The notes under the pieces are model-generated. The model searched no databases. It had not been told where the DNA came from and was given only the letters and a program-made list of their open reading frames with translations. This document shows, piece by piece, positions 12,689 to 60,971 of a stretch of DNA of 64,000 nucleotides. Position 1 is the stretch's first letter, and each line of letters begins with the position of its first letter. Origin of the DNA: Bernardetia sp. ABR2-2B (GTDB taxonomy: Bacteria > Bacteroidota > Bacteroidia > Cytophagales > Bernardetiaceae); NCBI RefSeq assembly GCF_037126435.1, contig NZ_CP147020.1:1971293-2035292 (forward strand), written 5' to 3'. The translations under genes were made by a program, and so were the position numbers.

Positions 12689-13459
12689 TTACTTTTTAAA
12701 ATAAACATCTCTAGCCTTTTTGAGAGCTTCAGTAAAGGCTTCTTTTGAAGAAAATATTTTTTTAAAAGCACTTTGATAAGTCGTAGGGTTTTGATTTATC
12801 TCCTCTTCAGAATCTTGATTTAATGCAGAACTATTTTTTGTTTCTATTTTACTTTTTGCTTCGCTTTCTTCTCTCTGACTAATTTCTGCATCTATTTCTT
12901 TAGATAACATTTTATCTTCTTTACTTTGTTCTTCTCGTAGCTTATCAGCTTTTTCAAAACGCTTATTTGCTTTCAGTTGATAACCTACCTTTTCTTCTAA
13001 AAGCCCCAAATTATTATGAGCAATTGCATCTTCTGGGTCTAGTTCTACTGCTTTTCTATAATCTTGCATTGCCAAAACAATCATTCCTGCTGCTGCACGG
13101 ATATAAGCACGACTAGAATATCGATATGGATTATCTGGTTCTAGCTCTAGGGCAATATTCATATTTACTAAGGCTTCTGATAGTTTTCCAACTGTAAAAT
13201 AAAGCACACCACGCTCACTATACGCATTTGGATTTTCAGCTTTATGAATGGATAAGTTATAATCCCTTAATGCTTTCTGAAACTCTTGTAACTTGAAATA
13301 AGCATAACCACGACGAAACAAAACTTCACCCTCAGAAATAGATTTTAATTCCTCTTTTTGAGGATTTTGAGCAAAATCATTTATTATTTTTGTACAAATT
13401 TGGATAGCTTCTTCATATTTTCCTTCTTGAATAGCTATATTTATAGTTTGAATATTCAT
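12689..13459 (-). CDS. TPR-repeat protein
   Basis: Several 34-aa TPR-like repeats (…AYFKLQEFQKALRDYNLSI…, …ALVNMNIALELEPDNP…, …AMQDYRKAVELDPEDA…). Charged C-terminal tail. Confidence 0.75.
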   Translation of the reverse strand: MNIQTINIAIQEGKYEEAIQICTKIINDFAQNPQKEELKSISEGEVLFRRGYAYFKLQEFQKALRDYNLSIHKAENPNAYSERGVLYFTVGKLSEALVNMNIALELEPDNPYRYSSRAYIRAAAGMIVLAMQDYRKAVELDPEDAIAHNNLGLLEEKVGYQLKANKRFEKADKLREEQSKEDKMLSKEIDAEISQREESEAKSKIETKNSSALNQDSEEEINQNPTTYQSAFKKIFSSKEAFTEALKKARDVYFKK

Positions 13460-13492
13460 TTTGAATAATTTTTTATGAAACAGATAATTTTT

Positions 13493-13987
13493 ATGAATAA
13501 AATAGTATTGCTACTTCTTGCTTTGTGTTGCTTCTCTTGTCTATCAAAGAAAAATAAAGAGACAACCGTTGATAAAGAAAAAGGAGTAATTAAGACAGAG
13601 AAAAGCAAAAATTTAATCAATGACCCTCGTTCTCCTAATCCAAGTAGTGAACTAGCTGTTTTGATGCGTGATATGTGGGAATATTCCGATACGCTAAAAA
13701 CTGCTATTTCTAATGGAAACACAGATTCTCTACCAAAATATGTTCATCATTTTGAGCATATTCTACAAGCAGAACCCACAGACGAACACACAAAAAGTCC
13801 CTCTTTTGATGCAATGGCAAAGATAATGCTTCAAAAATTAGAAAACGTATATCAGAATGCAAATGCAAAGGAAAAACAGAGCGTACAAGTAGAAGGTTTC
13901 AACTTATTTGTCAAAAGCTGTTTACAATGCCACGAGCAGCAATGCCCAGGTCCTATTTCAAAGATTTCTAAGTTAGAAATAAAGTAG
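13493..13987 (+). CDS. lipoprotein with a C-terminal CxxCH haem-binding motif (putative small c-type cytochrome)
   Basis: Signal peptide with Cys lipobox (LLLALCCFSC), then CLQCHEQQC near the C-terminus. The ORF track starts 6 codons earlier at 13475. I prefer this ORF over the antisense ORF 13456..13722. Confidence 0.5.
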   Translation: MNKIVLLLLALCCFSCLSKKNKETTVDKEKGVIKTEKSKNLINDPRSPNPSSELAVLMRDMWEYSDTLKTAISNGNTDSLPKYVHHFEHILQAEPTDEHTKSPSFDAMAKIMLQKLENVYQNANAKEKQSVQVEGFNLFVKSCLQCHEQQCPGPISKISKLEIK

Positions 13988-14039
13988 ATTTTGATGTTTT
14001 TGATTTATTTATAGTTCTTAAATTTTATTTTTATAAAAA

Positions 14040-15839
14040 ATGCTTTTTACATTCAAACATATACTACTTCTAAGCTTATTTTTTATAAAAACATCTTTTT
14101 TAGTTGCTCAAAATCATCATATTTTGGAGGATAAACCTCACGAAGATATAGATAACTTTGAAATTCTAATTGATAAAAATTATACATTCGAACAAATTCT
14201 TACTGATTCTACACTTAAGTTTCAAAAAAATCCTGAACGATATAAGTTTGAAACTGAAGAATATTGTTGGTTTCGGTTTACTATAAAAAACCCTTCCGTT
14301 TACACAAAAGAAATTTATCTAGTTACAGCACCTAAAATAAATAATACACTCTATTTTTATAATTATGAAGACAAAGAGTGGCAAACTAATCAAGCGGGTA
14401 TTGCCATAACTAACTCTAAAATGCGTAAAACGTACTTTCATATTTATCTACAACCCAAAGCACTAAATTATTTCTATGTTAAAGTAAAAGTAAGAGAACT
14501 ACACACACAAGAACACTCCGTCAGAACATATATTTACTTTAAATCCAAAGAGAACTTCGAACAAAAAGTGCAGTTTGTGATAGTTTCTTGTATAGTAGTC
14601 TGTTTTGCCATGTGTCTATTTTTCATTTATAACCTTTATATTTTTACTGTTTTTAGAGATTTGACTTATCTCTACTACTTAATTATTATTGTGGGAGGTG
14701 TTTTGTATATCATAGAATCTAGTAATGTAATTGATTTTGTTATTCCTATTAGTTTTTATGGTTTAGGGGTACAACCAGATGGAAATTTGTATTTCTATCA
14801 AGCCAAAAACATTATAAATATTGCAAATCTTTTATTGATTTTTTTCGGTTATATACAGTTTTCCAGAAACTATCTAAAACTTCAGACTTATTTAGTTTTT
14901 TGGGATACTATTATGAAATATACTTTATATATATTCTGTTCGTTTAGCATTTTCTTTATTGCTTGTTCATTTTCTAAATCATTTTATCTATATACTCAGT
15001 TAGCATTTTTTCATAATATACTATGTACTGTAATTATTTTATTGATTTTTGGTGTAAGTATATTTTTATATAAAGAGGGATACAAACTAGCTCGTTATTT
15101 TTTACTTGCTAACACATTTCCTTTATTGGGAATACTTAGTATCGCTTTTTATCTAGTTTTGTATAAATCACCTACAATTAATTTACAATTAATTCCTCAT
15201 ATAGCTATAATATTACAGACAGTCGGCTTTGCTATTGCACTAGTTGCTCGTATAAATCTTTTAAAAGATGAGCTAAAAGAAAAACAACTTAAAGCAGAAC
15301 AACTAGAAAAAGAAAATGACAAAATGTTGGCTCGTAATCGTTATATTGAATTAGAAAATGAACATATTATTTCTGAAATGGCACAAGAAGTCAATCAAAA
15401 TGCAGATTTACAACAAAAACTAGAAGTCAATCAGAGAGAGCTTACGGCAAATATGCTTTATCTTTATCAAAAAAATGAAATGTTGGCTAGTCTTCAAAGG
15501 CAAATAAAAAACCTTTCTTTTAAAGATACCACAGATAAAAATAGAGCAGGAATCAGAGAAATAAAATCTACAATTAAAAATGATTTATACTTAGAGAACG
15601 ATTGGGATAAATTCAAGATTCACTTTGAAGAAGTTCATCCTAATTTCTTTAGAAATTTAAAAGAAAAATACCCTACGCTTACACCAAACGAAATACGTCT
15701 TTCAGCTTATTATCATCTCAATATGTCAGCAAAAGAAATAGCCACTTTACTAAATATTAACCCTACAAGTGTGCATAGAGCTAAGTCAAGATTAAACAAA
15801 AAAATGGAGAAAGCCAATAAAGAAAAGCAAGGAAATTAG
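14040..15839 (+). CDS. 7TMR-DISM-type membrane receptor fused to a C-terminal LuxR-type HTH (one-component membrane regulator)
   Basis: Signal peptide plus a ~150-aa extracellular domain, then seven hydrophobic helices (residues ~185-400), a coiled coil, and a C-terminal LTPNEIRLSAYYHLNMSAKEIATLLNINPTSVHRAKSRLNKKM that matches the LuxR/GerE HTH. Confidence 0.65.
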   Translation: MLFTFKHILLLSLFFIKTSFLVAQNHHILEDKPHEDIDNFEILIDKNYTFEQILTDSTLKFQKNPERYKFETEEYCWFRFTIKNPSVYTKEIYLVTAPKINNTLYFYNYEDKEWQTNQAGIAITNSKMRKTYFHIYLQPKALNYFYVKVKVRELHTQEHSVRTYIYFKSKENFEQKVQFVIVSCIVVCFAMCLFFIYNLYIFTVFRDLTYLYYLIIIVGGVLYIIESSNVIDFVIPISFYGLGVQPDGNLYFYQAKNIINIANLLLIFFGYIQFSRNYLKLQTYLVFWDTIMKYTLYIFCSFSIFFIACSFSKSFYLYTQLAFFHNILCTVIILLIFGVSIFLYKEGYKLARYFLLANTFPLLGILSIAFYLVLYKSPTINLQLIPHIAIILQTVGFAIALVARINLLKDELKEKQLKAEQLEKENDKMLARNRYIELENEHIISEMAQEVNQNADLQQKLEVNQRELTANMLYLYQKNEMLASLQRQIKNLSFKDTTDKNRAGIREIKSTIKNDLYLENDWDKFKIHFEEVHPNFFRNLKEKYPTLTPNEIRLSAYYHLNMSAKEIATLLNINPTSVHRAKSRLNKKMEKANKEKQGN

Positions 15840-34393: not shown

Positions 34394-34810
34394 ATGACTG
34401 AATTTCAAATTTTAGCCGAAACACCACAATATTTAATAAAACTAAATCCAGAAGTGCCTTGCTTGATGATAAAATGGCGTGGCGATATGCACAGCGAAGG
34501 TTATCGCAAAGCATTAAATGATGTAATTGGTTGGATGGAAGAACATCAGATTTCTAAAATTATAAATGATGACCGTAAGATAGCAAAAGGAATTTCTAAG
34601 CAAGACCTAACGTGGGCTATGGAAGATTGGCTAAAACGTGCATTAGAAGCTGGTTATCAATCTATGGCAATCATACAAGAGCGTGATTTCTTCAAACGTT
34701 ATCCTGCTGCTCAAATTTCAGCTATGGCTCGTATGCACTATCAAGACCTTATTAAAGTTGAGTATTTTAGTACAGTAAAATCTGCTGAAGATTGGATAAA
34801 AGTAGCTTAA
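34394..34810 (+). CDS. hypothetical protein, possibly SpoIIAA/STAS-like fold (DUF)
   Basis: 138 aa with an alternating beta/alpha pattern and a C-terminal …SAEDWIKVA like STAS-like DUFs. This is weak pattern similarity only. Confidence 0.3.
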   Translation: MTEFQILAETPQYLIKLNPEVPCLMIKWRGDMHSEGYRKALNDVIGWMEEHQISKIINDDRKIAKGISKQDLTWAMEDWLKRALEAGYQSMAIIQERDFFKRYPAAQISAMARMHYQDLIKVEYFSTVKSAEDWIKVA

Positions 34811-48310: not shown

Positions 48311-49585
48311 TTATTTAGCTGGAAGAACTTTTCCACTTACTTCGCCAAAACCAATTCTTACAGAATCATTCTGACAAAAACCACGCATTACAATCGTATC
48401 ATTATCTTGAATAAATTTGCGTTCTCCTCCATCTTTCAAGTTGATTGTATTTTTTCCTGCCCAAGAAAGTTCCAACATTGAGCCATACGCTGTTTCATCT
48501 TTTCCACTAATTGTACCTGAAGCACACATATCGCCAACATTAATATTACAACCATTTACAGTATGATGGGTAAGTTGTTGCGCCATATTCCAATACATAT
48601 ATTTGAAATTAGACTTTGAAATTGTAGTTGCTTCTCCACCTTCTGGCATCAAATCTACTTCTAAATTAATATCAAAATTATGTTTTTCTTCGTATTTTAG
48701 ATAATCCAAAACTTCTGGGTCTTGCTCTGGACTGGCTACTCTAAATGGCTCTAAAGCATCAAGAGTAACTATCCAAGGAGAAATAGAAGAGGCAAAGCTT
48801 TTTCCTAAAAAGGGACCCAATGGCACATATTCCCACTTTTGAATATCTCTAGCCGACCAATCATTAAAGACAACCATTCCAAAAATATGATTTTCGGCTT
48901 CGCTGATAGAAACAGAATTTCCTAAAGCAGTAGATTTTCCAACAATGAACGCCATCTCTAATTCAAAATCTAGCAAACGACAAGGCGAAAAAATAGGCTC
49001 TGTGGCATCTTTTGGAAGAATTTGTCCTTTAGGTCTATGAATATCTGTACCCGAAATCACAATTGAAGAAGCACGACCGTGATAACCAACAGGAATATGT
49101 CGCCAATTTGGAAGGAGTGCATCGCCATTTGGACGGAACATTTTGCCTACATTGGTAGCATGTTCGATACTAGAATAAAAATCTGTATAATCACCTACTT
49201 TTACAGGCATGTGCATCGTTACCTGTTCAATCGAAAAAAGAACTTTGTCTTTATGTCGTTCTAAATCAGAACCTGCTTGTAATAATTCTGAAATTTTTTC
49301 TCGTGTTGCTCTCCAATTTTGTTGCCCTAATTCTATAAAAGGATTGAGAACATTTTCATAAAAAACGCTGTGGTCAAAATCCAAATTGTCAAAAAGATTG
49401 AGTTCTGAAAGCTCTGCCAAATCCAATACAAAATCTCCAATACGCACACCTACACGAGCATCTTGTGCATTATCAGTAGAAAAAATACCGAATGGCAAAT
49501 TTTGAATTGGAAAATCAGAATCTTTCGAAACTTCTACAAAAGATTTTAAGGCTGGATTATTAGCTTTGAATGTGTGTGCTGACAT
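48311..49585 (-). CDS. fahA: fumarylacetoacetase
   Basis: 424 aa with the FAH N-terminal domain (…FPIQNLPFGIFS…) and C-terminal catalytic domain blocks. Full length for fumarylacetoacetase. Confidence 0.8.
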   Translation of the reverse strand: MSAHTFKANNPALKSFVEVSKDSDFPIQNLPFGIFSTDNAQDARVGVRIGDFVLDLAELSELNLFDNLDFDHSVFYENVLNPFIELGQQNWRATREKISELLQAGSDLERHKDKVLFSIEQVTMHMPVKVGDYTDFYSSIEHATNVGKMFRPNGDALLPNWRHIPVGYHGRASSIVISGTDIHRPKGQILPKDATEPIFSPCRLLDFELEMAFIVGKSTALGNSVSISEAENHIFGMVVFNDWSARDIQKWEYVPLGPFLGKSFASSISPWIVTLDALEPFRVASPEQDPEVLDYLKYEEKHNFDINLEVDLMPEGGEATTISKSNFKYMYWNMAQQLTHHTVNGCNINVGDMCASGTISGKDETAYGSMLELSWAGKNTINLKDGGERKFIQDNDTIVMRGFCQNDSVRIGFGEVSGKVLPAK

Positions 49586-49779
49586 GAAATATGTGTCGTT
49601 TTATGGTAAGAATATTAGTTTTCAAGATTGCTATACTGCAAATATACATAATCATATAGAACCTTTTTTGTTACGGAAAAATGATAATGAAAATAAATTA
49701 GCTCCTATAAATAAACCAAAAGCCCAAAACTAAATTTTAATTTTGGGCTTTTTTAATTTTATGAAAATGAATTTACCTT

Positions 49780-50487
49780 TTAAGATAACAACAGCTTTTT
49801 ACCATATTTTTTATCTAGTTCTGTGAAAGCAATTTGTCTTTTTGATGAAGTTTTTGAGACTCTTACCTTATCAGCCATTTTTTCATATTCTTTTATCAGA
49901 GTACGCTCTTCTTGTGGCTCAAAGAAATAAATATATCCTGCTGACATTCCTTTGAGAGTGTCTTCATCATCATTCAAATCAATAAAATCTCCCAAAAAAG
50001 GAATAAAACGAAAGAACATCAAAAAATTCATATTGATAGGGTTTTTGTCAATAGACTGTGTAAGTGTCTTGTCTATAATTGCTATTTCCTGTCCTTCATT
50101 TACCCCCAAAACATCATCAAAATAAATAATTCCTTCTTCTACATCTATATCCACAATTCTGAAAAGTGAAGTATAAGATTTATCAAAAGAAGGCACAAAC
50201 TTATTTATCAAAGCAGCTTCTTTTTCTTCTGCTTGTTCTTTTAAGTAAATTTCATATGCCTTGTATTTCTGTACTCGCTGCTCTAAAAGCACATAATCTG
50301 TAAAACAATTGCGATGAGCATTGGTAGCAAAATTGATTTTGGTAGCATCTCCTTGATTATTTATACTTCCAAATGCAGGAATTGCTTCTTGCACAAAATA
50401 TCCATTATAAGCATCAAAAACAGCTTGGAGACTTTTTTTCATGTCATCAGCAAAAGTCTTATAATAATTGAGCGTGTAGTTTTCCAT
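49780..50487 (-). CDS. hypothetical protein
   Basis: 235-aa ORF with no signal peptide and no recognised domain. It sits between the fadL-like gene and the FAH gene on the same strand. Confidence 0.4.
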   Translation of the reverse strand: MENYTLNYYKTFADDMKKSLQAVFDAYNGYFVQEAIPAFGSINNQGDATKINFATNAHRNCFTDYVLLEQRVQKYKAYEIYLKEQAEEKEAALINKFVPSFDKSYTSLFRIVDIDVEEGIIYFDDVLGVNEGQEIAIIDKTLTQSIDKNPINMNFLMFFRFIPFLGDFIDLNDDEDTLKGMSAGYIYFFEPQEERTLIKEYEKMADKVRVSKTSSKRQIAFTELDKKYGKKLLLS

Positions 50488-50671: not shown

Positions 50672-52288
50672 CTAAAAGTGAAAACCAACTGTTGCAACTA
50701 CATTAGTTGTCGTATTTCTTATATCAATAGTAGGATTTGAATTATCAGATAAGCTATAAGGTGTATAAGCAGTATTAGTAGCCTGTTGAACAACTGCCAA
50801 ATCTACATAAAATGCCTTTTTATGAATGCCCAAACCACCCGAAATACGAGTTTGAAAAGCATCTTCATCTTCTCTACGGAAATCTTCTTTCATTGTGTTT
50901 CCATACAGACCGATTCCACCACGCAAGTAAAATGTATTCAGACGAAGTTCTGCTCCTAAACGATAGTTCATAGTAGAAGCATATAGATTTTTGATAGTTT
51001 GATTATCTGCCGTAAAGCTAAATTCAGCAGGTGGACTAAGTAATTTTGAAGATTCATAATTAATAAAATCAACGTCAGCACTAATAAAACCAAACTTTCC
51101 TACAAAAAATGCAGCTCCTAAAGAGGCACGTAAAGGTGTAGTCATATTATATGTACTTTCTATATCAACTGTACTTTCACCTACATCATTTAAAAAAAGT
51201 GGATTTTCATCTGTTCCATAATTATAATTATTATAAAAAGCATCTATACTTGCATTATACGTATCATTGATAGAAAAATAAGTAGGTGTAGTAATACTTG
51301 CGCCCAAACGAACAGCATAGATAGGACGATAAATCACACCTGCTGTAAGATTTATGCCTGTTCCAGAAATAGATAAGTTTTCACCAATAATCACATTGTT
51401 CAAAACAGGAACTATCGTTTGGTCTGTTACAATTTCTTCGTATTGTTTTACCTCATCATAATTAAATGATTGGATTCCTAAACCTACGCCAAAGAATAAT
51501 TTATCATCATAATTTCCACCATATGAAAAATTCCATTGACTTTGCGCTCCAGAATACTCTATTGTTTCACGTTGTAGAGTTGTCGCATAAGGTACAGGAG
51601 AATCATAGGTGTTCATTCCTCCATTATCATCATTACTTTCTTCAGTCAAGTAAGTATTATAAGCAAGTGCCAATAAATCAGTTGCTCCACCTGATGCTGG
51701 ATAAATTTGACTCCAAGGAATTCCATTAGATTGATCTATAAAATAATCTATAATAGAGTTTTGAGAATTTGTTCCTTCATAACTAGTACGTCTGTGAAAG
51801 CTATTTAATCGACTATATGAAATAGAAAATGCTCCTCCCTTGTAGCCTGATGAATTATTGGAAGGCAAAACAAATGCTCCTCCAAGTTGGGCAAAGTTAA
51901 AATTGAGTTTTGCATCTTCTGTTGGTGTATTTTGAGAACCCAAATTATAAGTAGCATCAGAACCTAAGAAAGAAAGTGAGGGCGAAAATGTAATTTCTGA
52001 ACGCTGCAAATATCCAAGACCAGCAGGATTAACAGAAGCCGAGCTAATATCTCCACCAATAGCTGTTGCTGCACCACCAATGCCTTGAATACGAGCATTT
52101 GCCCCCATGGTAGGAATAGTTTGGGCAAAACGATTAGCATCGATATAATATCCAAAAGCACCTTGTGCTACTGGATTAGTTTGAGCAGAAGCAAAGTCGG
52201 AATAAAAAAAAGTAGTTGCTAAAGTAACTATTCCTATAATTTTTCTTATTGAAAATTCATTTAATTGTATGAGTTTTATAGTTTTCAT
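50672..52288 (-). CDS. FadL/TodX-family outer-membrane hydrophobic-compound transporter (putative)
   Basis: Signal peptide. Conserved N-terminal region with the NPAGL hallmark (…GGDISSASVNPAGLGYL…). Gly/aromatic-rich barrel with a C-terminal …ATVGFHF. Lies directly downstream of susD on the same strand. Confidence 0.55.
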   Translation of the reverse strand: MKTIKLIQLNEFSIRKIIGIVTLATTFFYSDFASAQTNPVAQGAFGYYIDANRFAQTIPTMGANARIQGIGGAATAIGGDISSASVNPAGLGYLQRSEITFSPSLSFLGSDATYNLGSQNTPTEDAKLNFNFAQLGGAFVLPSNNSSGYKGGAFSISYSRLNSFHRRTSYEGTNSQNSIIDYFIDQSNGIPWSQIYPASGGATDLLALAYNTYLTEESNDDNGGMNTYDSPVPYATTLQRETIEYSGAQSQWNFSYGGNYDDKLFFGVGLGIQSFNYDEVKQYEEIVTDQTIVPVLNNVIIGENLSISGTGINLTAGVIYRPIYAVRLGASITTPTYFSINDTYNASIDAFYNNYNYGTDENPLFLNDVGESTVDIESTYNMTTPLRASLGAAFFVGKFGFISADVDFINYESSKLLSPPAEFSFTADNQTIKNLYASTMNYRLGAELRLNTFYLRGGIGLYGNTMKEDFRREDEDAFQTRISGGLGIHKKAFYVDLAVVQQATNTAYTPYSLSDNSNPTIDIRNTTTNVVATVGFHF

Positions 52289-52569
52289 TATATAAGTTAG
52301 TTTTTAGTAAAAATCAAGAGTTAAAAAATGTCTAGAAAATGATTAGAATAAAAATCATTTGTCTAAGTAGTTTAAAAAGTAGATGCAAAAAACACTCAAA
52401 AGGTCGCATCTGTTTCTCATAAATAACTAACTGATAGAGTTAAAAATAGTTAAGTATGATTTTTGATTTAACAACTAGGCATAAAAAAACCACTAGAAAA
52501 ATTAATTCTTAGTGGTTTTTTGATTTATTAAATTCTAATATGATAGAATAAAACGTAAGTTACTTATTA

Positions 52570-53949
52570 TTAATAACCAGGGTTTTGTTCTAAGACACCT
52601 GGGTTTGCATCTCTTTCACGTTCAGGAATAGGTAGAATGATTTTAGGATCATTAAAATCGATTACACTTGGTGCACCACCTAAGTTTGTATTCTCAATTC
52701 TAGTTACTCCTAATCCATTACGTGTAAGGTCAAACAAACGATGTCCTTCAAATGCAAGTTCTCTTCTTCTTTCTTCAAGAACTTCATCTACTGTAATAGA
52801 TCCTAAAGCATCTGCTCCTCTAGCTGAACGAATTGAATTTACATCTGCCAATGCTGCACTAAGATTTCCTAGTTTAGCCTGTGCTTCTGCTCTATTCAAT
52901 AATACTTCGGCATAGCGAATGACTCGTGGACTAGATAGACCAGATATTGCATTTTCACCACCAAACTTAAAATTATAGTCATCTCCATCATCAGGTCTGA
53001 TAAAACCCAAACGGACATCACCTGCTGAATAAACATCAATTAAGTCATTTGTAGGGCGGATATCGCCATAACCACTAGGAATGAAAATATCACCTAAGTT
53101 GTCAGCTCCTCTGTTCTCATCAGCAGCAAATCTTAAAGTAAAGATTTCTTCAGAAGAACCAGAAGCAGCCCATGAATCTACGTAAGCTTGTCCTTGAAGC
53201 AGATCAAATCCATCTACTTGGTTAGCAGCATCAATTGCTTGTTGGTTATCTCCTTTGTAAAGATATACTCTTGATAAAAGTGCATAAGCAGCTTGGTCAG
53301 AGATACGGAAAGGAGTAGAGTATGACATCAATGGAGCAGCTTCTTCCAAGTCTGCAATGACTTGTGCATAAACTTCTGCTACAGTAGCACGTCCGTTAAA
53401 TTCATCCTCAGCCCCTAAGACTACAGGTACTCCTAAGTTAGCGCCATTGCCGTCCGTATAAGGACGACCAATGAGACGTACCAAGTTAAAATGAGATAGT
53501 GCACGACCAAATAAAGCTTCTCCTTTAATAGAGTTACGTAATGCTTCATTTTCTGCTCCACTTGCCTCCAAATTATCTATGTTGGCTAAGATATTATTAG
53601 CAGCTTTGATAGTCTGATAAGCTCTAGTGTATAGATCACGAATAGTACCTGTTTGGGCTACTACATTATAAGAGTAATAATCTACGTAACGTCCAGAGTT
53701 TGCGCTAGTAATAAGTGTATTATCAGCCATTAAATCTGGAATTACTATAATATCACGTCCATAGTAATTTAGTGTCTGCATACGATCATACATACCTAGG
53801 ATTGCAGCATTTGCTGCATCTAAAGAACTAAATACTTGATCATCATTTAGCGACTGTTCTGGCTCTACATTCAGAAAGTCATCGCAGCTAGTTGTAGCAA
53901 GAAGTGTTGCTGCTAATGCGGCCGCTGTTATATATTTTCTTATAGTCAT
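52570..53949 (-). CDS. SusD/RagB-family nutrient-binding outer-membrane lipoprotein
   Basis: Signal peptide plus lipobox (LLATTSCDD…). TPR-like helical SusD architecture. Immediately downstream of the SusC-like gene. Confidence 0.88.
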   Translation of the reverse strand: MTIRKYITAAALAATLLATTSCDDFLNVEPEQSLNDDQVFSSLDAANAAILGMYDRMQTLNYYGRDIIVIPDLMADNTLITSANSGRYVDYYSYNVVAQTGTIRDLYTRAYQTIKAANNILANIDNLEASGAENEALRNSIKGEALFGRALSHFNLVRLIGRPYTDGNGANLGVPVVLGAEDEFNGRATVAEVYAQVIADLEEAAPLMSYSTPFRISDQAAYALLSRVYLYKGDNQQAIDAANQVDGFDLLQGQAYVDSWAASGSSEEIFTLRFAADENRGADNLGDIFIPSGYGDIRPTNDLIDVYSAGDVRLGFIRPDDGDDYNFKFGGENAISGLSSPRVIRYAEVLLNRAEAQAKLGNLSAALADVNSIRSARGADALGSITVDEVLEERRRELAFEGHRLFDLTRNGLGVTRIENTNLGGAPSVIDFNDPKIILPIPERERDANPGVLEQNPGY

Positions 53950-54036
53950 TTTTTATTAAATTTTATTTGTTTTTAGACAAATTTTTATAATAGATATATC
54001 TATAAGATATATCTATTATAAAATATTTTGAAGTAA

Positions 54037-57000
54037 TTACAGAGTGATATCCAGTCCAAATGTAAGTGCTTTTCCATTTGGATAACGGAAGAACTCTGTT
54101 CCAACTTCACTTGCTTCAGGATCAAATCCTGTATAATTAGTAGCAGTCCAAAGGTTAGTACCTTGTACATATACTCTTACTCCAGCTAATTTAGCCTTAG
54201 AAAGCACACTTGTAGGAAGTGTATATCCTAAAGTAACATTTCTCAAACGAACATAAGATGCGTCTTCTAAGTAACGAGTAGAAGCTTGATTTGCATTTAA
54301 GTTACCACCTATTAATGCTTGTGGACGACTTGCAATATCTCCTGGTTGTCTCCAACGATCTTCAATAGTAGCTGCACTTTGATTCAAGGCGTAGAATGCA
54401 CCATCAGAATCTGTGATACGACGAGTATCATTATATAGACTATTTCCTTGTACTACATAAAGTAATGCTGAGAAATCAATACCTTTATAAGATACTGAAT
54501 TGATGAAACTACCATACCATTTAGGCTGTGCATTTCCAACAATTCTACGATTTGCGTCACCATAACTAGAAGTAAGTGTACCTTCTTCAGTAAGCCAAGT
54601 AGGAGCTCCTGTTTCAGGGTCTGCACCTTGATAATCTCTTAAATAGAATGAACGAACTGGCTCTCCTTCTCTAAGTACTTGTGTACCTTGAACGATATCA
54701 ACTCCACCTGGAAGTTCAACTACTTCATTTTTGTTTGAAGTAAATAAGAAAGTGCTTGTCCAAGAAAATCCATCTCTACCACCTACGATATTACGAGTAA
54801 CAACCTGTACTTCTACACCTGTATTACGGATTTTACCGATATTATCATTACGAGTAGTAAAACCTGTTGTAGAAGGAACTGGAACTTCAAATAATAAATC
54901 TACTGATTCACGACTATAATAATCAATTGAACCGTTGATTCTCTCCTTTAAGATTCCAAAGTCTAATCCAACATCAAACTGAGAAGTTCTTTCCCATTTC
55001 AAGTTAGGATTAGCAATTTGTGAAGGAACCGCAGCTGGTTGTCCATTGTATGCAGCTGAAAAGCTGTATAAACCTAAACTAGGAAAGTTATTGTTTGGAG
55101 AATCTTGCGTAGAGAAGTTTGCATTACCAGAAATACCATAACCTGCACGAAGCTTAAGAAGATTGATAATTTCTACATCTTGTAAGAAAGATTCATCTTT
55201 CACACTCCATGATCCACCAACAGCCCAAAAAGTAGCAGATTGATTATTTGCACCAAATCTTGAAGAACCATCTCTACGAACACTTGCAGTAAGACGGTAT
55301 TTACCCATATAAGAGTAATTCGCATTAGCAAAAACAGAAGCAAAGTTATTATCACTACTTGCTCCAAAAGTAGATTCAGGAACAGCTGCAGAGTTAAGTG
55401 TCAATAACAGTCCATTTGCAAAGCCAGTACCTCCAGTACCAAAAGAATTATTTTTGTTAGATTGTGTTTCACCACCTACCAAAACATCAAATGTGTGTAC
55501 TTCATTGAAAGTACGGTTGTATCTCAAAACAGCTTGACTTGTAAGTGTAAAGTTCTCTGTTATACCTTGTGTAATACGTCCTCTAACACCACCGTCAGGG
55601 TCTCTAAGACCACCATCACTAGTAGTAAGGTCAGTAATAGATTTCTCAGAAAGATTAATCCAGTCTATACCTACTTTAGCATCTAAAGAAAGACCTTTAA
55701 TGATTTTATAACTTGCATTTAAATTACCAAGAGTACGGAATGTTCCACTATTTCTTTTATTTAAAGCCGTAGTACGAACAAAATTATCTTGAATAAAAGT
55801 GGCATAACCAACTCCATTGACAAGCTCTCCAGTAACAGGGTCACGAGGCGAATCATAAGGAGCATTTAAATAAGCACCTAATAATGGACTATTGAATTGA
55901 TTACCTGGCGAAGCACTTCTTCTATCAGTATAAGAAACATTCAATTGAGTACCAAAAGAAAACTTGTCATTCGCTTTATGATTGATATTAACACGACCAG
56001 AATAACGGTCAAAATCACTTCCTATCAAAATACCTTGCTGTTCAAAGTAAGAACCTGAAACAAAAAATGTAGTTTTTTCATTTCCACCAGAAGCAGATAA
56101 GTCATGGCTCTGAGTAATACCTGTTCGGAATGCCTCATCTACCCAATTTGTATTTGTATTTCTAGCATCATTAGGAAACTGTGCATCTATTACGCTTTGA
56201 GGAAAGCCTGAGTTTTCAAGTGCTTCAGTATAATAATCCAAATACTGGTCTGTTGAAAGGTTTTCATAACCATTGAAGTTTGGAGTAGTAGTTCCATACT
56301 GAGAACTTAACTTAAATTTTGTTTTTCCACCTTTACCTGCTTTAGTAGTAACTAAGATTACACCGTTTGCACCACGAGAACCATAAAGAGCAACTGCAAC
56401 AGCATCTTTTAATACTGTAATATTCTCTATATCATTAGGATTGATATTGGATAATGGATCTTGAATCAGAGATGTCTCTGTACCACCGTCATTTGTATAA
56501 ATAGCAGAAAGGTCTGGAGAATCCTGAACAATCACACCATCAATTACGTAAAGTGGACTACGGTTTGCACCAACAGACCCTGTACCACGCACTCTAATTT
56601 GAGCAACAGCACCAGGTTGTCCTACACTACTTGTAGTTTGAGCACCCGCTACACGACCTTGAATAAGCTGATTTACATCAGTCAAGGGTACTTGAGCAAT
56701 CTCTTCACCCTCTACTACAGATATAGCAGAAACAAGTTCTTCACGAGTTTTGTTTCCTGTATATCCAGTAACAAAGACAGTCTCTAAGGCTCCATCAGCC
56801 ATAGTTACATCTATAACTGTACGGTTTCCAATAGTCTCTTCTACCACTTTGTAACCTACAAAACGATAAACAAGGGTTTCTGTACCTTCAGGAACAGAGA
56901 TAGAGTATCTTCCTTCCATGTCAGTTTGTGTACCTTGTGTTGTTCCTTTTATTTGAACGGTAGCACCAGGTAAAGCTCCGTCTGCAGAAGTTACAGTACC

Positions 57001-57078
57001 TGTTATTGTTCGTTGTGCCCATGCTGAACTAACAAGCAAGAACATCAACATCATACTAAGTAATAATTTTCTCTTCAT
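54037..57078 (-). CDS. SusC/RagA-family TonB-dependent outer-membrane transporter
   Basis: 1013 aa. N-terminal CarbopepD_reg extension (RTITGTVTSADGALPGATVQIKG…), plug domain, 22-strand barrel, and a C-terminal …TFGLDITL. No STN/anti-sigma coupling domain. Confidence 0.9.
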   Translation of the reverse strand: MKRKLLLSMMLMFLLVSSAWAQRTITGTVTSADGALPGATVQIKGTTQGTQTDMEGRYSISVPEGTETLVYRFVGYKVVEETIGNRTVIDVTMADGALETVFVTGYTGNKTREELVSAISVVEGEEIAQVPLTDVNQLIQGRVAGAQTTSSVGQPGAVAQIRVRGTGSVGANRSPLYVIDGVIVQDSPDLSAIYTNDGGTETSLIQDPLSNINPNDIENITVLKDAVAVALYGSRGANGVILVTTKAGKGGKTKFKLSSQYGTTTPNFNGYENLSTDQYLDYYTEALENSGFPQSVIDAQFPNDARNTNTNWVDEAFRTGITQSHDLSASGGNEKTTFFVSGSYFEQQGILIGSDFDRYSGRVNINHKANDKFSFGTQLNVSYTDRRSASPGNQFNSPLLGAYLNAPYDSPRDPVTGELVNGVGYATFIQDNFVRTTALNKRNSGTFRTLGNLNASYKIIKGLSLDAKVGIDWINLSEKSITDLTTSDGGLRDPDGGVRGRITQGITENFTLTSQAVLRYNRTFNEVHTFDVLVGGETQSNKNNSFGTGGTGFANGLLLTLNSAAVPESTFGASSDNNFASVFANANYSYMGKYRLTASVRRDGSSRFGANNQSATFWAVGGSWSVKDESFLQDVEIINLLKLRAGYGISGNANFSTQDSPNNNFPSLGLYSFSAAYNGQPAAVPSQIANPNLKWERTSQFDVGLDFGILKERINGSIDYYSRESVDLLFEVPVPSTTGFTTRNDNIGKIRNTGVEVQVVTRNIVGGRDGFSWTSTFLFTSNKNEVVELPGGVDIVQGTQVLREGEPVRSFYLRDYQGADPETGAPTWLTEEGTLTSSYGDANRRIVGNAQPKWYGSFINSVSYKGIDFSALLYVVQGNSLYNDTRRITDSDGAFYALNQSAATIEDRWRQPGDIASRPQALIGGNLNANQASTRYLEDASYVRLRNVTLGYTLPTSVLSKAKLAGVRVYVQGTNLWTATNYTGFDPEASEVGTEFFRYPNGKALTFGLDITL

Positions 57079-57581
57079 GAGTAAATTGATTAATTTGATA
57101 ATGAAAAATTTAAAAAAAATAGTTTTCGGAGGGTATATTTATTTTGATAGTTATATAATAACTCATTTAGCTTTTCTGTTCAGAAAAATTATGAATTATA
57201 ATGACTAATTATCATAAATTATATTAAGTCATAAAAATTGACTTTTGTTAGTATAGAACTTGAAGGGGTCATTAAGTTAAGTCTTTTTTAACAGAAAACC
57301 TATTAAATACCATAAAAAGAATAAATTAATTTGATAATTATCAATTTCTAGTATCAATAGCACATCATTGTTCTTAACAAAAGGTAATTTTTATGAATGC
57401 AATTAAGTCAAAATTTATATTAAGACAAAATGATTTTTACAAAATTTTATATAAAAGGGTGTTAAATAATGGCTTTTATCTACTAAACTACTCTATTTCA
57501 AGTTGTTAAACAGTAGCCTGTGCAATGTAAACAATAGTATTTTTTTTAATACAAAGTGTTCTTAATTTAAGATTACTGATT

Positions 57582-60500
57582 TTACATCCGTATTCCCACT
57601 ACAAGCATGTCATCAATTTGGCGTTGTAATCCTTGCCAATGTGTAAAGCTACCTTGTAGTTTCTTTTCTTGCTCTGCTAGAGGAAGATGTTGTATTTTAC
57701 TTAATAATTCTATAAATCGTTTCTTAGAAAATTTTTTGTTCTCCCCACCACCAAACTGGTCTAAAAATCCATCTGTTGTTAAATAAATCATATCATTTTT
57801 TTGAAGGCTAATATGTTTATCAGTAAATGCCTTTTGTTTGTTTTTTAACGTACCTCCAATAGAAAACCTATCTCCTTTTATTTCCTCAATTTTTCCATCT
57901 TTGGTATAAAACAATGAATTTTTTGCTCCAGAGAATGTTACTTTGTAGTTTTCTTTATCTAAGGAAATCATAGACATATCCATTCCATCACGACTTTTCC
58001 ACATTTTACCTGTCTCGTGGAGTACGTTTCCTTCGTTTTGTTTGAGCCAATCTACAATTCCCTCATTCATTTCAGTAAGAATTTTAGAGGGTTCATCTAT
58101 TCGCTTTACTTTAGTCGTCTGCTCAAGCATAGCAAAACCCACTACGGACATAATTGCCCCAGGAACACCGTGTCCAGTACAATCTACTACTGCAAACTGA
58201 CTTATTCCATTTTTTTTCCATCCCCAATAAAAATCTCCACTTACAATATCACGAGGCTGAAACAATACAAAATGCTCCGTAAATGCTTCTACCATTTCTT
58301 CCTCTGAGGGGATAATGGCATCTTGAATACGCTGTGCATAACGAATAGAGTCTGTAATTTTCTTATTTGTAGATTCTATAATTGTGTTCTGTTCCTCTAC
58401 TTTTTCTTTTTCTTTAATAAGTTCTGTTGTACGCAATACTATTTTATCTTCTAATTGCTTTTTCTTCTGCTCTACTCGCCATATTCTCCATCTATAAATA
58501 AGAAAAAGAATTAATAAAGCTATGAGAGCAAATCCTATTTTTGCTTCAAGTGTATTGTACCAAGCTGCTGTAATACTAATTTCGACTGAAATAGGATCTT
58601 CATTCCACACACCATCCGAATTAGAACCTTTAACTAAAAAAGTATATTCTCCTGCATCTAAGTTAGTGTATTGAGCTTCTCCTCTGTCAGACTCTATCCA
58701 GTCTGAATCAAATCCCTCTAATTTATATTGATACTTATTTCGCTCTGGAAGTGAATAATGTAGTGAAGCAAAAGAAAAGGAAAATGAACTTTGCTTATAA
58801 GTAAGTTGTATTTTATCAACAAGGGAAATATGATTCTGAATAAGACTACTATCTCCTATTTCTACCTCTTTATTATTGACTTGAAAATTGGTAAATAAAA
58901 CAGGAGCAATATAGCTATTACCTTTTATACTATCAGGATGAAAATAATTAAGACCATTTATTCCTCCAAAATACATCATTCCACCTCTTCCTTTTGCATA
59001 AGCACCCGAATTGAATTCATTGGCTTGTAAACCATCTTCTACACCAAAATTGGTAAAAGTTGTATCTTGAGGATTAAATTTACTAATCCCTCTATTGGTG
59101 CTAAACCACAAATTCTTTTTAGAATCTTCTAACACTCCATATAACACATTATTAGGAAGTCCATCTTCTTCGGTAAAGTGGGTAAATTTACTGCTTTTTC
59201 TATCTAATGTGTTTAAACCTCCACCGTACGTCAAGACCCAAAAGTTATTCTCATCATCTTCATAAACAGGATATACTCGGTTTGTACTAATACTGTATTT
59301 ATCGTTTACATTGCTTTTATAAGCAGAAAAAACTTCATTTTTTGCATCAAACTTATTAAGTCCTCCACCATATGTACTTATCCATAGTGTTCCTTCAGAG
59401 TCTTCATAAATACCTCTTACTCTATCGTTTGATAAAGAACTAGGAACATTAGGGTCATGTGCAAAAGACTTAAAAGAATTTGTTTTTTCATCATACCTTG
59501 ACAAACCTCCTTTATCTGTGCCTACCCATATTGTACCTGCTTCATCTTGATAAATTACACGTATAGAATTACTCAAAAGTCCTTTTGAAGTTCTTGTTGT
59601 AAAACGCTTTTTCAGAACTGCACCGAGAGAAGGGTTTCTATTATCAAAGACATAAATTCCATCCTCTATTGTACCTACCCAAACTTGACTTTGATTGTCT
59701 TCATATAAAGCATAAATTCCTTTTCCTGCCACTGTTCCGACAGTAGAAGCATTTTCTAGATCTTCTCTATATTTATTCAGTCCCTGTACTGTTCCTATCC
59801 AAAGTATTCCGTGTTGGTCTTCCAAAACACTACGTACAGTATTATCACTCAAACCTGTACGAGAAGCTGTATAGGTGTCAAATTTTATTCTATTTCTATC
59901 AAATTTATTGATACCATAGCCATTTGTACCAATCCAAATAATACCAGCTTGGTCTTCAAACATCGTCAGAATATCATTCGAAGAAAGGCTAGATGGATCT
60001 GTATTACGAGAACGAATAACACGTAAACGAGGCGACTTCCACCATGGTCTCAAATACTGCAAACCATCGTCTGTCATGAGCCAAAGAATCCCTTTGTCAT
60101 CAAGAAAAACACTATTTATATTCAAATACCTATTCTGGACAACATCTATATGATTCGATGTTAAAAAAGTTCTTTTGAAAAGCCCACCTGCTCCACCTGC
60201 CCAAATATTGCCCTCATTATCCATAGTTATACAATTGATAGCATCACGCTTAAAGCCTCTCTCTTCAAACTGCTTTGTTTTTCTATCAAAAAGAGCCAAT
60301 CCTGCATTTGTGCCTATCCATAAGTTTCCTTCTTTGTCTTCAAAGAAACAGCGAACAATACACTCATCAATATCTTTTGTTCTGAATGTCTCAAATGTAT
60401 TGGCATCTTTGATAAAATGAACTAAACCTTCGTCTGTTCCTGCCCAAATCTCACCATTTTTATCACAGATAATAGAACGAACTGTATTGCTGATAATACT

Positions 60501-60971
60501 TGTTTCGTCAATAGGATTGTTTCTGTATCTGATAAAATGTTGCTTTGCAAAGTCAAAAACATTCAACCCTCCCTCTGTTCCTATCCACATATTTCCTTCT
60601 CTATCTTCTGTAATACACAGAATAAGATTATCTGAAATAGAATTTATATTATCAACAGCACGTTTGTAATGATGAAACTTGATTCCATCATACATATTTA
60701 GTCCATCTTGTGTACCTATCCAAAGTAAGCCACGAGAATCTTGAAAGAAAACATTAGGAGTATTTTGAGAAAGTCCTTCATCGATAGTAATATGTTCGAA
60801 AGACATGTTTCCTTGTGCATAAGAAACAGAAAATATACTCTGCCCAACCAAACAGCTTATAATTAAAGCTAGTGCATAAAAAGACATAGAAAAAAGTTTT
60901 GCAAACTGATACGGCAAAATATCTTTTTGATAGTTTTTGGTTATGATTATATTTTCTTTATTAGAGTTCAA
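57582..60971 (-). CDS. membrane sensor phosphatase: periplasmic double beta-propeller (Reg_prop ~14 repeats) + Y_Y_Y domain + TM + coiled coil + SpoIIE/PP2C Ser/Thr phosphatase
   Basis: ~14 repeats of the (L/I)W(I/V)GTxxGLxx(F/Y)D motif. Y_Y_Y block (…YQYKLEGFDSDWIE…GEYTFLVKGSNSDGVW…). One TM (GFALIALLILFLIYRW). C-terminal PP2C (DSIRYAQRIQDAIIP…VDCTGHGVPGAIMS…DGMDMS…TDGFLDQFGG). Possible alternative start at 60887. Confidence 0.8.
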   Translation of the reverse strand: MNSNKENIIITKNYQKDILPYQFAKLFSMSFYALALIISCLVGQSIFSVSYAQGNMSFEHITIDEGLSQNTPNVFFQDSRGLLWIGTQDGLNMYDGIKFHHYKRAVDNINSISDNLILCITEDREGNMWIGTEGGLNVFDFAKQHFIRYRNNPIDETSIISNTVRSIICDKNGEIWAGTDEGLVHFIKDANTFETFRTKDIDECIVRCFFEDKEGNLWIGTNAGLALFDRKTKQFEERGFKRDAINCITMDNEGNIWAGGAGGLFKRTFLTSNHIDVVQNRYLNINSVFLDDKGILWLMTDDGLQYLRPWWKSPRLRVIRSRNTDPSSLSSNDILTMFEDQAGIIWIGTNGYGINKFDRNRIKFDTYTASRTGLSDNTVRSVLEDQHGILWIGTVQGLNKYREDLENASTVGTVAGKGIYALYEDNQSQVWVGTIEDGIYVFDNRNPSLGAVLKKRFTTRTSKGLLSNSIRVIYQDEAGTIWVGTDKGGLSRYDEKTNSFKSFAHDPNVPSSLSNDRVRGIYEDSEGTLWISTYGGGLNKFDAKNEVFSAYKSNVNDKYSISTNRVYPVYEDDENNFWVLTYGGGLNTLDRKSSKFTHFTEEDGLPNNVLYGVLEDSKKNLWFSTNRGISKFNPQDTTFTNFGVEDGLQANEFNSGAYAKGRGGMMYFGGINGLNYFHPDSIKGNSYIAPVLFTNFQVNNKEVEIGDSSLIQNHISLVDKIQLTYKQSSFSFSFASLHYSLPERNKYQYKLEGFDSDWIESDRGEAQYTNLDAGEYTFLVKGSNSDGVWNEDPISVEISITAAWYNTLEAKIGFALIALLILFLIYRWRIWRVEQKKKQLEDKIVLRTTELIKEKEKVEEQNTIIESTNKKITDSIRYAQRIQDAIIPSEEEMVEAFTEHFVLFQPRDIVSGDFYWGWKKNGISQFAVVDCTGHGVPGAIMSVVGFAMLEQTTKVKRIDEPSKILTEMNEGIVDWLKQNEGNVLHETGKMWKSRDGMDMSMISLDKENYKVTFSGAKNSLFYTKDGKIEEIKGDRFSIGGTLKNKQKAFTDKHISLQKNDMIYLTTDGFLDQFGGGENKKFSKKRFIELLSKIQHLPLAEQEKKLQGSFTHWQGLQRQIDDMLVVGIRM

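Follow-up and report, generated by a model that had tools for sequence, protein, structure and literature searches.

A Reg_prop/Y_Y_Y sensor joined to a predicted SiaA-like PP2C phosphatase beside an exchanged susC-susD cassette in Bernardetia

The 64-kb window, i.e. the whole stretch of Bernardetia DNA analysed here, carries a sensor-phosphatase gene followed on the same strand by a susC-susD pair and a gene for a FadL-like outer-membrane barrel (Table 1). The ORF coordinates, the minus strand and the 503-bp gap before susC given by an earlier note on this DNA were all reproduced from the ORF list, and its SusC/SusD pair was recovered by TIGR04056 for SusC (795 bits) and by PF14322 and PF07980 for SusD. 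The sensor-phosphatase is 100% identical to a database protein of Bernardetia sp. ABR2-2B; its translation more probably begins at the ATG at 60890, which would give a 1102-aa protein with the N-terminus MSFYALALII..., than at the TTG of the listed ORF, because orthologues measure 1093-1099 aa. Other neighbours encode a 235-aa unknown protein, an FAA hydrolase, YdjM, an FkbM methyltransferase and YicC, and Sua5 is encoded next downstream in B. litoralis.

Table 1. Genes and protein segments at the locus (window positions; all on the minus strand)
Feature	Position	Strand	Basis
Sensor-phosphatase gene	57582..60971	-	ORF list; Pfam Reg_prop, Y_Y_Y, SpoIIE; 1129 aa from TTG
N-terminal signal peptide or anchor, aa 28-50 in ORF numbering	60822..60890	-	Kyte-Doolittle peak; sequence MSFYALALIISCLVGQSIFSVSYAQ
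Periplasmic sensor, Reg_prop double beta-propeller and Y_Y_Y	58554..60815	-	Pfam; phmmer
Y_Y_Y domain within the periplasmic sensor	58572-58757	-	Pfam
Single TM helix, aa 807-830	58482..58553	-	Hydropathy peak 2.28
Charged helical/coiled-coil linker, without HAMP	58257..58481	-	Composition and SiaA-PP2C alignment
PP2C/SpoIIE domain, SiaA-like, metal-binding motifs intact	57588..58196	-	PF07228; NCBIfam SiaA; 6K4E
Intergenic spacer, sensor gene to susC	57079..57581	-	503 bp
susC, SusC/RagA TonB-dependent transporter, without STN domain	54037..57078	-	TIGR04056, 795 bits
susD, SusD/RagB lipoprotein	52570..53949	-	PF14322 and PF07980
FadL/OmpP1/TodX-fold outer-membrane barrel, 538 aa	50672..52288	-	Homologues, AF2 model, Foldseek, profile matches
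Second SiaA-like PP2C paralogue, 674 aa, N-terminal region differs	10505..12529	-	tblastn, PF07228, NCBIfam SiaA

The assignment of the 538-aa protein to the FadL family, also made in the earlier note, stands through its homologues and its fold but not through a Pfam match of its own: neither PF03349 nor any other Pfam family matched it at E<=0.01, and phmmer against the PDB returned nothing meaningful, but PF03349 is present in its homologues, which go by the name OmpP1/FadL, its profile matches are 3DWO and TbuX, and its AF2 model (pLDDT 89.9) matches FadL, TodX and TbuX in Foldseek at E ~1e-15. The model predicts a FadL-like beta-barrel whose N-terminus forms a plug-like segment. Structure matches to 9N2D, 9HIV and 9HJM, in which the Bacteroidota BAM-associated barrel is seen, brought that barrel into consideration; the sequence profile matches FadL/TbuX homologues only. 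The gene is kept at 79-86% in four of the five Bernardetia genomes and, in two contig look-ups, homologues elsewhere do not lie beside susCD, i.e. it travels independently.

Our Pfam and hydropathy analyses agree with the architecture proposed earlier for the sensor-phosphatase: a Reg_prop double propeller (E=1.1e-64, eight stretches), a Y_Y_Y domain (E=9.3e-20, residues 739-800), one transmembrane helix, a coiled coil and a C-terminal PP2C/SpoIIE domain (PF07228, E=8.4e-17, residues 926-1128; 62.2 bits against a gathering cut-off of 25). All three models are significant, and the C-terminus is indeed PP2C. Hydropathy gives two hydrophobic segments, at residues 28-50 and 807-830, and residues 836-905 of the linker are 46% E/K/R/D/Q. 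No HisKA, HATPase, receiver or AraC match was found in the 1129-aa protein with Pfam and NCBIfam, as the proposal of an output with no kinase, receiver or AraC domain had held, and HAMP had no Pfam match. The periplasmic sensor matches HTCS periplasmic domains very strongly in phmmer (4A2L, E=3e-119; 3V9F, E=9e-92); 4A2L/4A2M is the solved BT4663-type sensor of a Bacteroides HTCS.

The C-terminal module has a single match among solved PP2C structures, 6K4E (E=2.3e-40 to 2e-39, ~290 residues aligned); no other solved PP2C scored, even at E<=10. This structure is SiaA-PP2C (PMC7647112). The alignment takes in the helix before the catalytic domain, and the charged linker pairs with the helix at the N-terminus of the crystallised SiaA-PP2C construct. 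The NCBIfam SiaA model matches the C-terminus at E=1.2e-62 over model positions 378-657 only, and its score of 212 bits against an equivalog cut-off of 700 falls short of full-length equivalence to SiaA. The PP2C motifs SGDFYW, DCTGHG, DGMD, TDGFxDQ and DD are conserved, and the catalytic Asp/Gly motifs vary little or not at all across 25 diverse family members, including this one. At the level of sequence, the predicted output, a PP2C of the partner-switching kind and specifically a SiaA-like one, is supported. The second SiaA-like protein in the window is 40% identical over 305 aa to the C-terminal region of the sensor-phosphatase (tblastn) and matches PF07228 (E=8.5e-20) and the NCBIfam SiaA model (E=3.7e-56).

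Judged by database matches, the sensor-PP2C architecture is not rare but belongs to a very large, routinely annotated Bacteroidota family: a collinear Y_Y_Y-TM-PP2C junction occurs in 77 of the 120 best matches, the family comprises at least 598 loci among species-representative genomes, and existing pipelines name its members "SpoIIE family protein phosphatase" or "ligand-binding sensor domain/serine phosphatase RsbU". Other proteins carry this sensor domain, at similar identity, joined to HK, HK-RR, GGDEF, sigma-54 activator and cyclase outputs. The earlier note knew of no functionally characterised example of the pairing, and in the literature that we searched no functional study of a Reg_prop/Y_Y_Y-PP2C protein was found.

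Genes of the SiaA system lie beside some of these relatives. The SiaC family (PF09345, E=4e-36) is found at seven of 80 family loci (about 9%) and, of the signalling families, it alone recurs among 103 small neighbours, STAS and HATPase_c_2 being absent from the recurrent neighbour families of the same set; a SiaB-family kinase scores above its curated cut-off at L009, L081 and L038 and was detected by tblastn at L064 and L082. The PP2C nearest to that of the Bernardetia sensor among the matches listed (L008, 48% identity) has a SiaC gene immediately before it. One Microscilla SiaC gene is an orphan. At the Bernardetia locus, Pfam and NCBIfam searches that included small unannotated ORFs found no SiaB, SiaC or STAS gene in the 64-kb window or the Bernardetia flanks and no RsbW in the window, and GGDEF, the domain expected of a SiaD-type diguanylate cyclase output, had no match among the ~30 of ~52 window ORFs scanned; a word-index search with the Cytophagales SiaC of L008, within the limited reach of the index, gave 84 matches, Cytophagales included, and none from Bernardetia. 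Given a SiaA-like PP2C module, and SiaC or SiaB genes on the flanks of some members of the family, a partner-switch-type output is plausible; as linked SiaC occurs at so few family loci, the substrate is assigned by family association. The partner-switching-like signalling suggested earlier thus gains from the phosphatase and from the relatives, but no partner gene in the window bears it out.

On balance we lean, by a little, towards the reading that the sensor-phosphatase is a SiaA-type partner-switch input with unlinked partners, and that its position beside susC-susD-fadL is genus-level synteny. Binding of a periplasmic ligand would alter the dimer geometry of the propeller/Y_Y_Y sensor (HTCS sensors are known to undergo a "scissor-blade" closure on ligand binding), and the coiled coil would relay this change to turn the PP2C dimer on or off. 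The PP2C would dephosphorylate a small SiaC-type (DUF1987, STAS-related) phosphoprotein, which a SiaB-type kinase would re-phosphorylate; the unphosphorylated SiaC-type protein would bind and control an effector, completing a partner switch. The Bernardetia genes for partner, kinase and effector would be unlinked and outside the 64-kb window, susC would have its own conserved regulatory region, and the susC-barrel/susD segment would be a recombining cassette whose changes are not tied to the sensor.

It is unlikely that the PP2C instead feeds an RsbV/RsbW-type switch, in which dephosphorylation of a STAS antagonist, and not of a SiaC-type module, would free an alternative sigma factor for general stress or envelope functions. 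The Pfam SpoIIE family is common to RsbU, RsbP and SpoIIE, JGI pipelines call relatives "serine phosphatase RsbU", ECF sigma-factor genes adjoin two of the 80 family loci, an ORF at 34394..34810 has a weak, sub-threshold SpoIIAA-like match, and SiaC itself is structurally STAS-related (PMC8457831). However, SiaC and not STAS or HATPase_c_2 is among the recurrent neighbours, the kinases accompanying the family are of the SiaB and not the RsbW type, and among solved PP2C structures a sequence search detects only SiaA.

The earlier note had further proposed that the sensor controls the adjacent susCD. The sensor gene does lie directly upstream of susC in all five Bernardetia genomes, but this synteny, kept within the genus, is absent outside it: there is no susCD near the sensor in the two nearest non-Bernardetia relatives (52% and 50% identical), and of 79 family loci in other Bacteroidota not one lies within 10 kb of a SusC homologue, compared to six of eight classical HTCS control loci with SusC/SusD by the same test (Fisher p=7e-8). 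Outside the genus, this is the outcome that the earlier note had named as refuting its proposal. The controls, from a metagenome scan, were only those loci with a Reg_prop sensor, an AraC end and long flanks (n=8); "HK-only" loci were left out as not being HTCS, and the AraC-type HTCS locus P0072 was left out for its contigs of 10-11 kb and flanks of 2-4 kb. The window holds a susC/susD pair, as a PUL does, and no CAZyme genes were found in it; with neither CAZymes nor a partner-switch or sigma gene nearby, the region is therefore not a canonical PUL.

Comparison of the Bernardetia genomes shows that the transporter genes have changed while the sensor has not. The susC-barrel/susD segment occurs in three allelic classes with 23-45% identity and has been replaced at least twice, while the sensor remains 81-92% identical. 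According to blastn breakpoints, the 5' ~270-290 nt of susC, encoding the N-terminal CarboxypepD_reg domain, are conserved across Bernardetia and the remainder is swapped: the N-terminal 95 aa of SusC are 77-93% identical, against 30-39% for the rest, and SusD is 23-36% identical between allelic classes. The sensors of L085 and L086, for example, are 92% identical, yet their cassettes belong to classes C and B, respectively. Replacement of the cassette beside an unchanged sensor argues against a shared ligand. Moreover, the upstream housekeeping genes for the methyltransferase and YicC are equally syntenic in Bernardetia, so conservation of the sensor-susC adjacency does not exceed the background. 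A shufflon or shared operator was considered and rejected: the window contains no second susC 5' segment or conserved 80-bp block, and only short AT-rich chance matches.

In the five-genome alignment of the spacer, per-bin invariance is poor over the first ~120 nt past the sensor stop, and conserved islands at ~57381-57460, ~57261-57300 and ~57079-57140 have 70-85% invariant columns, equal to or above coding sequence. These islands are presumed to be a susC promoter, operator or leader. No terminator-like hairpin and no Rfam family were found in the spacer, and sigma-70 promoter-like matches are no more frequent there than in shuffled sequence.

These observations bear on a second alternative, i.e. 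that the sensor-phosphatase is a dedicated regulator of susC-susD-fadL in Bernardetia, in which sensing of a periplasmic breakdown product would, by way of an unlinked partner switch and a sigma or transcription factor, activate the conserved putative promoter of susC. Adjacency and orientation kept in five of five genomes despite repeated cassette replacement, the invariance of the spacer islands, a sensor domain of the HTCS glycan-sensing type and the fact that no other regulator gene adjoins susC all speak for it; HTCS-type sensor domains typically serve glycans imported by SusCD. We nevertheless consider it improbable, given the family loci and nearest relatives that have no SusC, sensor similarity that does not track cassette class, the equal synteny of the methyltransferase and YicC genes, and the lack of a partner-switch, sigma or CAZyme gene nearby. 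The susCD adjacency is most likely, from these comparisons, genus-level synteny and not a dedicated regulatory pairing. There is little evidence that the sensor-phosphatase controls the neighbouring SusC/SusD transporter, because it adjoins SusC/SusD only in Bernardetia.

We give low credence to a broader possibility, in which the HTCS-type sensor and SiaA-type phosphatase, by way of an unlinked SiaB/SiaC-like (or STAS/sigma) switch, would control a conserved promoter platform ahead of susC in Bernardetia and so govern whichever SusC-barrel/SusD cassette occupies the site. It is very improbable that the PP2C acts directly on a substrate outside partner switching (a Hanks-type kinase substrate, a transporter or an envelope protein) or that the protein is a non-catalytic scaffold: no cognate partner lies in the window or the Bernardetia flanks and about 90% of family loci are without linked partners, but the (near-)invariant catalytic motifs of 25 family members and a strong, specific SiaA similarity that extends to the regulatory N-terminal helix argue against both.

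Nutrient uptake in Bacteroidota is thought to be regulated mainly by HTCS, ECF-sigma/anti-sigma and SusR-like systems. Our analysis draws attention to a large, unstudied family in which a glycan-type periplasmic sensor would drive a SiaA-type Ser/Thr phosphatase; the linked SiaB/SiaC partners in some genomes point to a partner-switch input module, and the family offers a tractable way into Ser/Thr-phosphorylation signalling in Bacteroidota. Since the family shows no association with susCD elsewhere, their adjacency within a single genus should not be taken for regulation; if one Ser/Thr circuit did preside over interchangeable SusC-barrel/SusD cassettes, it would be a third SusCD regulatory logic beside HTCS and ECF-sigma/anti-sigma. 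The exchangeable susC-barrel/susD behind a conserved putative promoter and SusC N-terminal domain illustrates how transporter alleles are replaced in nature, and the exchange may reflect diversifying selection, e.g. by phage or toxin receptors or by substrate shifts.

Compared to known systems, the Bernardetia protein shares with Bacteroides HTCS the Reg_prop double propeller and Y_Y_Y followed by a single TM helix, but its output is PP2C, with no HisKA, HATPase, receiver or AraC domain; HTCS genes usually lie beside susC/susD, whereas the sensor-PP2C gene does so only within Bernardetia. Like SiaA of the Pseudomonas aeruginosa SiaABCD system, it is predicted to be a membrane-anchored PP2C phosphatase; SiaA, however, spans the membrane in two regions and carries a HAMP domain (PMC7647112). 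The Bernardetia protein has instead a signal or anchor, a ~750-aa propeller/Y_Y_Y sensor, a single TM helix and a coiled coil but no HAMP match, and its locus has no siaB-siaC-siaD operon. With RsbU, RsbP and SpoIIE of Firmicutes it has in common PF07228 and, putatively, a regulated PP2C acting on a small STAS-like phosphoprotein, but its PP2C detects none of their solved structures by sequence, and STAS/RsbW neighbours are not recurrent at its family loci. In the Firmicutes proteins the N-terminal regulatory domains are cytoplasmic or polytopic, and the substrates are STAS proteins. Chlamydia RsbU, from another phylum, is a TM protein whose cytoplasmic PP2C, part of a partner-switching pathway, is under the control of a periplasmic ligand-binding domain; its sensor fold differs from and is unrelated to the propeller/Y_Y_Y sensor. 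The Bernardetia protein combines an HTCS-type sensor with a SiaA-like output, in an architecture already widely annotated.

Our analysis bears out the architecture that the earlier note had assigned to the sensor-phosphatase, namely a Reg_prop/Y_Y_Y module, one transmembrane (TM) helix, a coiled coil and a SpoIIE/PP2C domain: Pfam matched all three named families (Reg_prop, E=1.1e-64, in 8 stretches; Y_Y_Y, aa 739-800, E=9.3e-20; SpoIIE/PP2C, aa 926-1128, E=8.4e-17) and found no kinase, receiver or AraC domain anywhere in the protein, and hydropathy placed an N-terminal signal/anchor segment at aa 28-50 and one TM helix at aa 807-830, after which comes a helical stretch rich in charged residues. 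Compared with solved structures, the periplasmic part resembles the sensor domains of BT4663-type hybrid two-component systems (HTCS; 4A2L/4A2M, E=3e-119), and also 3V9F; for the cytoplasmic part the match is 6K4E (E=2e-39). A protein database search returned a 100% identical Bernardetia sp. ABR2-2B protein. The TTG start is probably mis-called: it puts 27 extra residues (60890..60971) ahead of an ATG at 60890, which opens a typical signal peptide (MSFYALALII...) and is the likelier start because the orthologues are annotated at 1093-1099 aa.

Coordinates of the sensor-phosphatase gene, its neighbours and a second phosphatase gene (window positions)
Feature	Position	Strand	Size	Basis or remark
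Sensor-phosphatase gene	57582..60971	-	1129 aa, counted from TTG	ORF list
Spacer between sensor gene and susC	57079..57581	-	503 bp	
susC	54037..57078	-	1013 aa	TIGR04056, 795 bits
susD	52570..53949	-	459 aa	PF14322, PF07980
FadL-like barrel gene	50672..52288	-	538 aa	Homologues, AlphaFold model, family profile
Exchanged susC-barrel/susD cassette	52527..56807	-		susC from about nt 270 to susD; compared with four other Bernardetia genomes (L003, L004, L085, L086)
Second SiaA-like PP2C paralogue	10505..12529	-	674 aa	N-terminal region unlike that of the sensor, with weak CarboxypepD_reg-like matches

The output domain points to one particular phosphatase type. The PP2C metal-binding motifs SGDFYW, DCTGHG, DGMD, TDGFxDQ and DD, invariant or nearly so in an alignment of the family's Y_Y_Y-TM-PP2C junction (A1), are all present in the sensor. 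Its cytoplasmic 300 residues match positions 378-657 of the NCBIfam SiaA model (E=1.2e-62), and 6K4E, the Pseudomonas aeruginosa SiaA PP2C domain (PMC7647112), is the sole PDB sequence detectable with this part (E=2.3e-40); no other PP2C structure among all PDB sequences scores even at E<=10. Whether SiaC (DUF1987, STAS-related) is phosphorylated is controlled by SiaA together with the kinase SiaB; in its unphosphorylated form SiaC activates the cyclase SiaD (PMC7647112; PMC8457831), and the SiaA PP2C domain is a homodimer (PMC7647112). The output of the sensor is apparently an active SiaA-type PP2C.

The architecture is that of a large family rather than a one-off. A collinear Y_Y_Y-TM-coiled coil-PP2C junction occurs in 77 of the best 120 matches from a search of 5.8 billion proteins, in Cytophagales, Bacteroidales, Flavobacteriales and even Desulfobacterales, and scanning species-representative genomes with A1 yielded at least 598 family loci. 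Existing pipelines name such proteins 'SpoIIE family protein phosphatase' or 'ligand-binding sensor domain-containing protein/serine phosphatase RsbU'. The same sensor domain, at comparable identity (35-41%), is also fused to histidine kinase, HK-receiver hybrid, GGDEF, sigma-54 activator and adenylate cyclase outputs, so the periplasmic domain is a freely shuffled input module. The literature holds no functional study of any Reg_prop/Y_Y_Y-PP2C protein that we could find, in keeping with the earlier note, which had known of no characterised example of this pairing; the family is abundant, already annotated and uncharacterised, and the architecture merits study.

The genes surrounding family members support the SiaA-type assignment. 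In a census of the best 80 family loci, SiaC-family genes (PF09345, E=4e-36) were found at seven, and SiaC was the only recurrent signalling family when Pfam was run on 103 small neighbouring ORFs; STAS and RsbW-type kinase families were not among the recurrent ones. SiaB-family kinases lie at five loci of other genomes, above the curated cut-off at L009, L081 and L038 and by tblastn at L064 and L082. Extra PP2C paralogues, frequently in tandem arrays, accompany 24 of the 80 loci, as genes or fragments; arrays of two to five sensor- or TPR-PP2C paralogues occur for example at L039, L077, L061, L034, L064 and L020.

In the 64-kb window itself we found no SiaB-, SiaC- or STAS-type partner gene; SiaC genes are frequently unlinked in Cytophagales. 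The window's sole STAS-like hint is a 138-aa ORF at 34394..34810 (+), 23 kb away from the sensor gene, with a sub-threshold match to SpoIIAA-like PF11964 (22.8 bits against a cut-off of 25, E=1.6e-4) and no NCBIfam match. The second SiaA-like PP2C gene adjoins genes for a TPR protein (12689..13459) and a 7TMR-DISM membrane sensor (14040..15839), whose C-terminal ~200 aa contain no confident domain, and 10505..15839 may be a second signalling cluster.

The ORFs of the earlier note all lie on the minus strand at the coordinates stated, and its susC, susD and FadL-family barrel genes were confirmed by the ORF list, by domain matches and, for the barrel, by homologues and fold. SusC comprises an N-terminal CarboxypepD_reg domain, a plug and a barrel, with no STN domain. 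The 538-aa FadL-like protein itself has no Pfam match; its homologues bear PF03349 and are named OmpP1/FadL, its AlphaFold model (mean pLDDT 89.9) matched FadL, TodX and TbuX at E about 1e-15, and its family profile matches 3DWO and TbuX. The FadL-fold barrel family counts over 4000 representatives, which are ~510 aa long and for the most part have no Pfam match. The model also resembles FadL-like barrel chains of new Bacteroidota BAM complexes (9N2D_B, 9HIV_F, 9HJM_F), but by sequence profile the protein is linked only to FadL and TbuX. In Rhodocytophaga and Algoriphagus the FadL-like gene sits in a conserved context (ProRS, unknown gene, FadL-like gene, shikimate kinase), and outside Bernardetia it is not a susCD accessory.

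The earlier note had further proposed that the sensor-phosphatase is a local, partner-switching-like regulator of the adjacent susCD genes. One of the two main supports for this proposal is the persistence of the adjacency within Bernardetia: the order methyltransferase, sensor, susC, susD is kept in 5/5 genomes examined, and the FadL-like gene in four, being missing in MNP-M8. The other is the spacer. In a five-genome alignment its first ~120 nt past the sensor stop codon show little conservation (10-30% invariant columns), whereas two islands, ~57381-57460 and ~57079-57140, reach 70-85%, at least as much as the adjacent coding sequence, and another at ~57261-57300 is sharply conserved. These islands suggest that susC has a conserved regulatory region of its own; searches of the spacer for a terminator-like hairpin and for Rfam families found none, and sigma-70-type sites are not in excess there. 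An imperfect inverted repeat of 22 nt (57375-57396 against 57229-57250) ties the first island to a segment further downstream that is conserved in part; as the repeat is AT-rich, it could be due to chance.

The transporter genes themselves have been exchanged. Nucleotide homology of ~79-81% to other Bernardetia reaches from the methyltransferase gene past the sensor gene and all of the spacer to ~270-290 nt into susC, is then lost, and returns just 3' of susD; one breakpoint falls within the conserved segment coding for the SusC CarboxypepD_reg domain. Protein comparisons among the five genomes define three allelic classes of the cassette: A (the window), B (B. litoralis and MNP-M8; 88% and 79% identical) and C (OM2101 and a MAG; 79% and 73%). 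Between classes SusC is 32-45% and SusD 23-36% identical, as against 77-93% for the N-terminal 95 residues of SusC, 81-92% for the sensors and 79-86% for the FadL-like proteins. The most similar sensors (92%), those of OM2101 and MNP-M8, nevertheless stand beside cassettes of different class, and class distribution is incongruent with both sensor similarity and flanking genes. A periplasmic sensor that recognised a product of what the transporter imports would be expected to change in step with the transporter; it does not, which speaks against local control. The exchange is a separate and reasonably interesting by-product of this work. Gene content also varies 3' of the FadL-like gene: the window has an unknown 235-aa protein and fumarylacetoacetase (48311..50487), B. 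litoralis and OM2101 have Sua5 there, and a MAG has CNNM; in OM2101 a restriction-modification gene is inserted between yicC and the methyltransferase gene.

Beyond Bernardetia the adjacency disappears, an outcome that the earlier note had listed as refuting its reading. The two nearest non-Bernardetia relatives, 52% and 50% identical, lack susC/susD within 10 kb, and tblastn with the window's SusC, SusD and FadL-like proteins drew no match at any of the 79 family loci of other Bacteroidota that could be analysed. Flanks of 3 kb or more are available on at least one side at 75 of these loci, and the encoded protein is full-length (1000 aa or more) at 57. The same test on classical HTCS loci from metagenomes (Reg_prop sensor with HK, receiver and AraC) found SusC and/or SusD at six of eight with long flanks (Fisher's exact test, p=7e-8); as these were detected at only 24-29% identity, the test was sensitive enough (one control, L102, gave 42% over a short edge-cut fragment). 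The sensor-phosphatase family thus lacks the susC association that defines HTCS. Comparative evidence lends no support to phosphatase-based control of the SusCD locus, and we regard the local-regulator proposal as improbable.

We favour, with modest confidence, a SiaA-type partner-switch sensor phosphatase not dedicated to regulating susCD. In this protein, one TM helix and a coiled coil join the HTCS-type periplasmic ligand-binding domain to a SiaA-type PP2C; a ligand-induced rearrangement of the sensor dimer would be relayed by the coiled coil to the PP2C dimer. The phosphatase would then reset a SiaC-type phosphoprotein (a STAS-type substrate being less likely), opposed by a SiaB-type kinase, and the unphosphorylated partner would control an effector through direct binding. 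As these 64 kb contain two SiaA-like phosphatases, shared partners may receive input from several sensors.

The sensor would work as SiaA does, yet it does not qualify as a SiaA equivalog: its sensor domain is a different one, a HAMP domain and a siaBCD operon are both lacking, and its score is 212 bits against the full-length equivalog cut-off of 700. With HTCS it has the periplasmic input domain in common, but neither their defining kinase, receiver and AraC features nor their family-level susC association. We place it among the sensor-PP2C partner-switch phosphatases.
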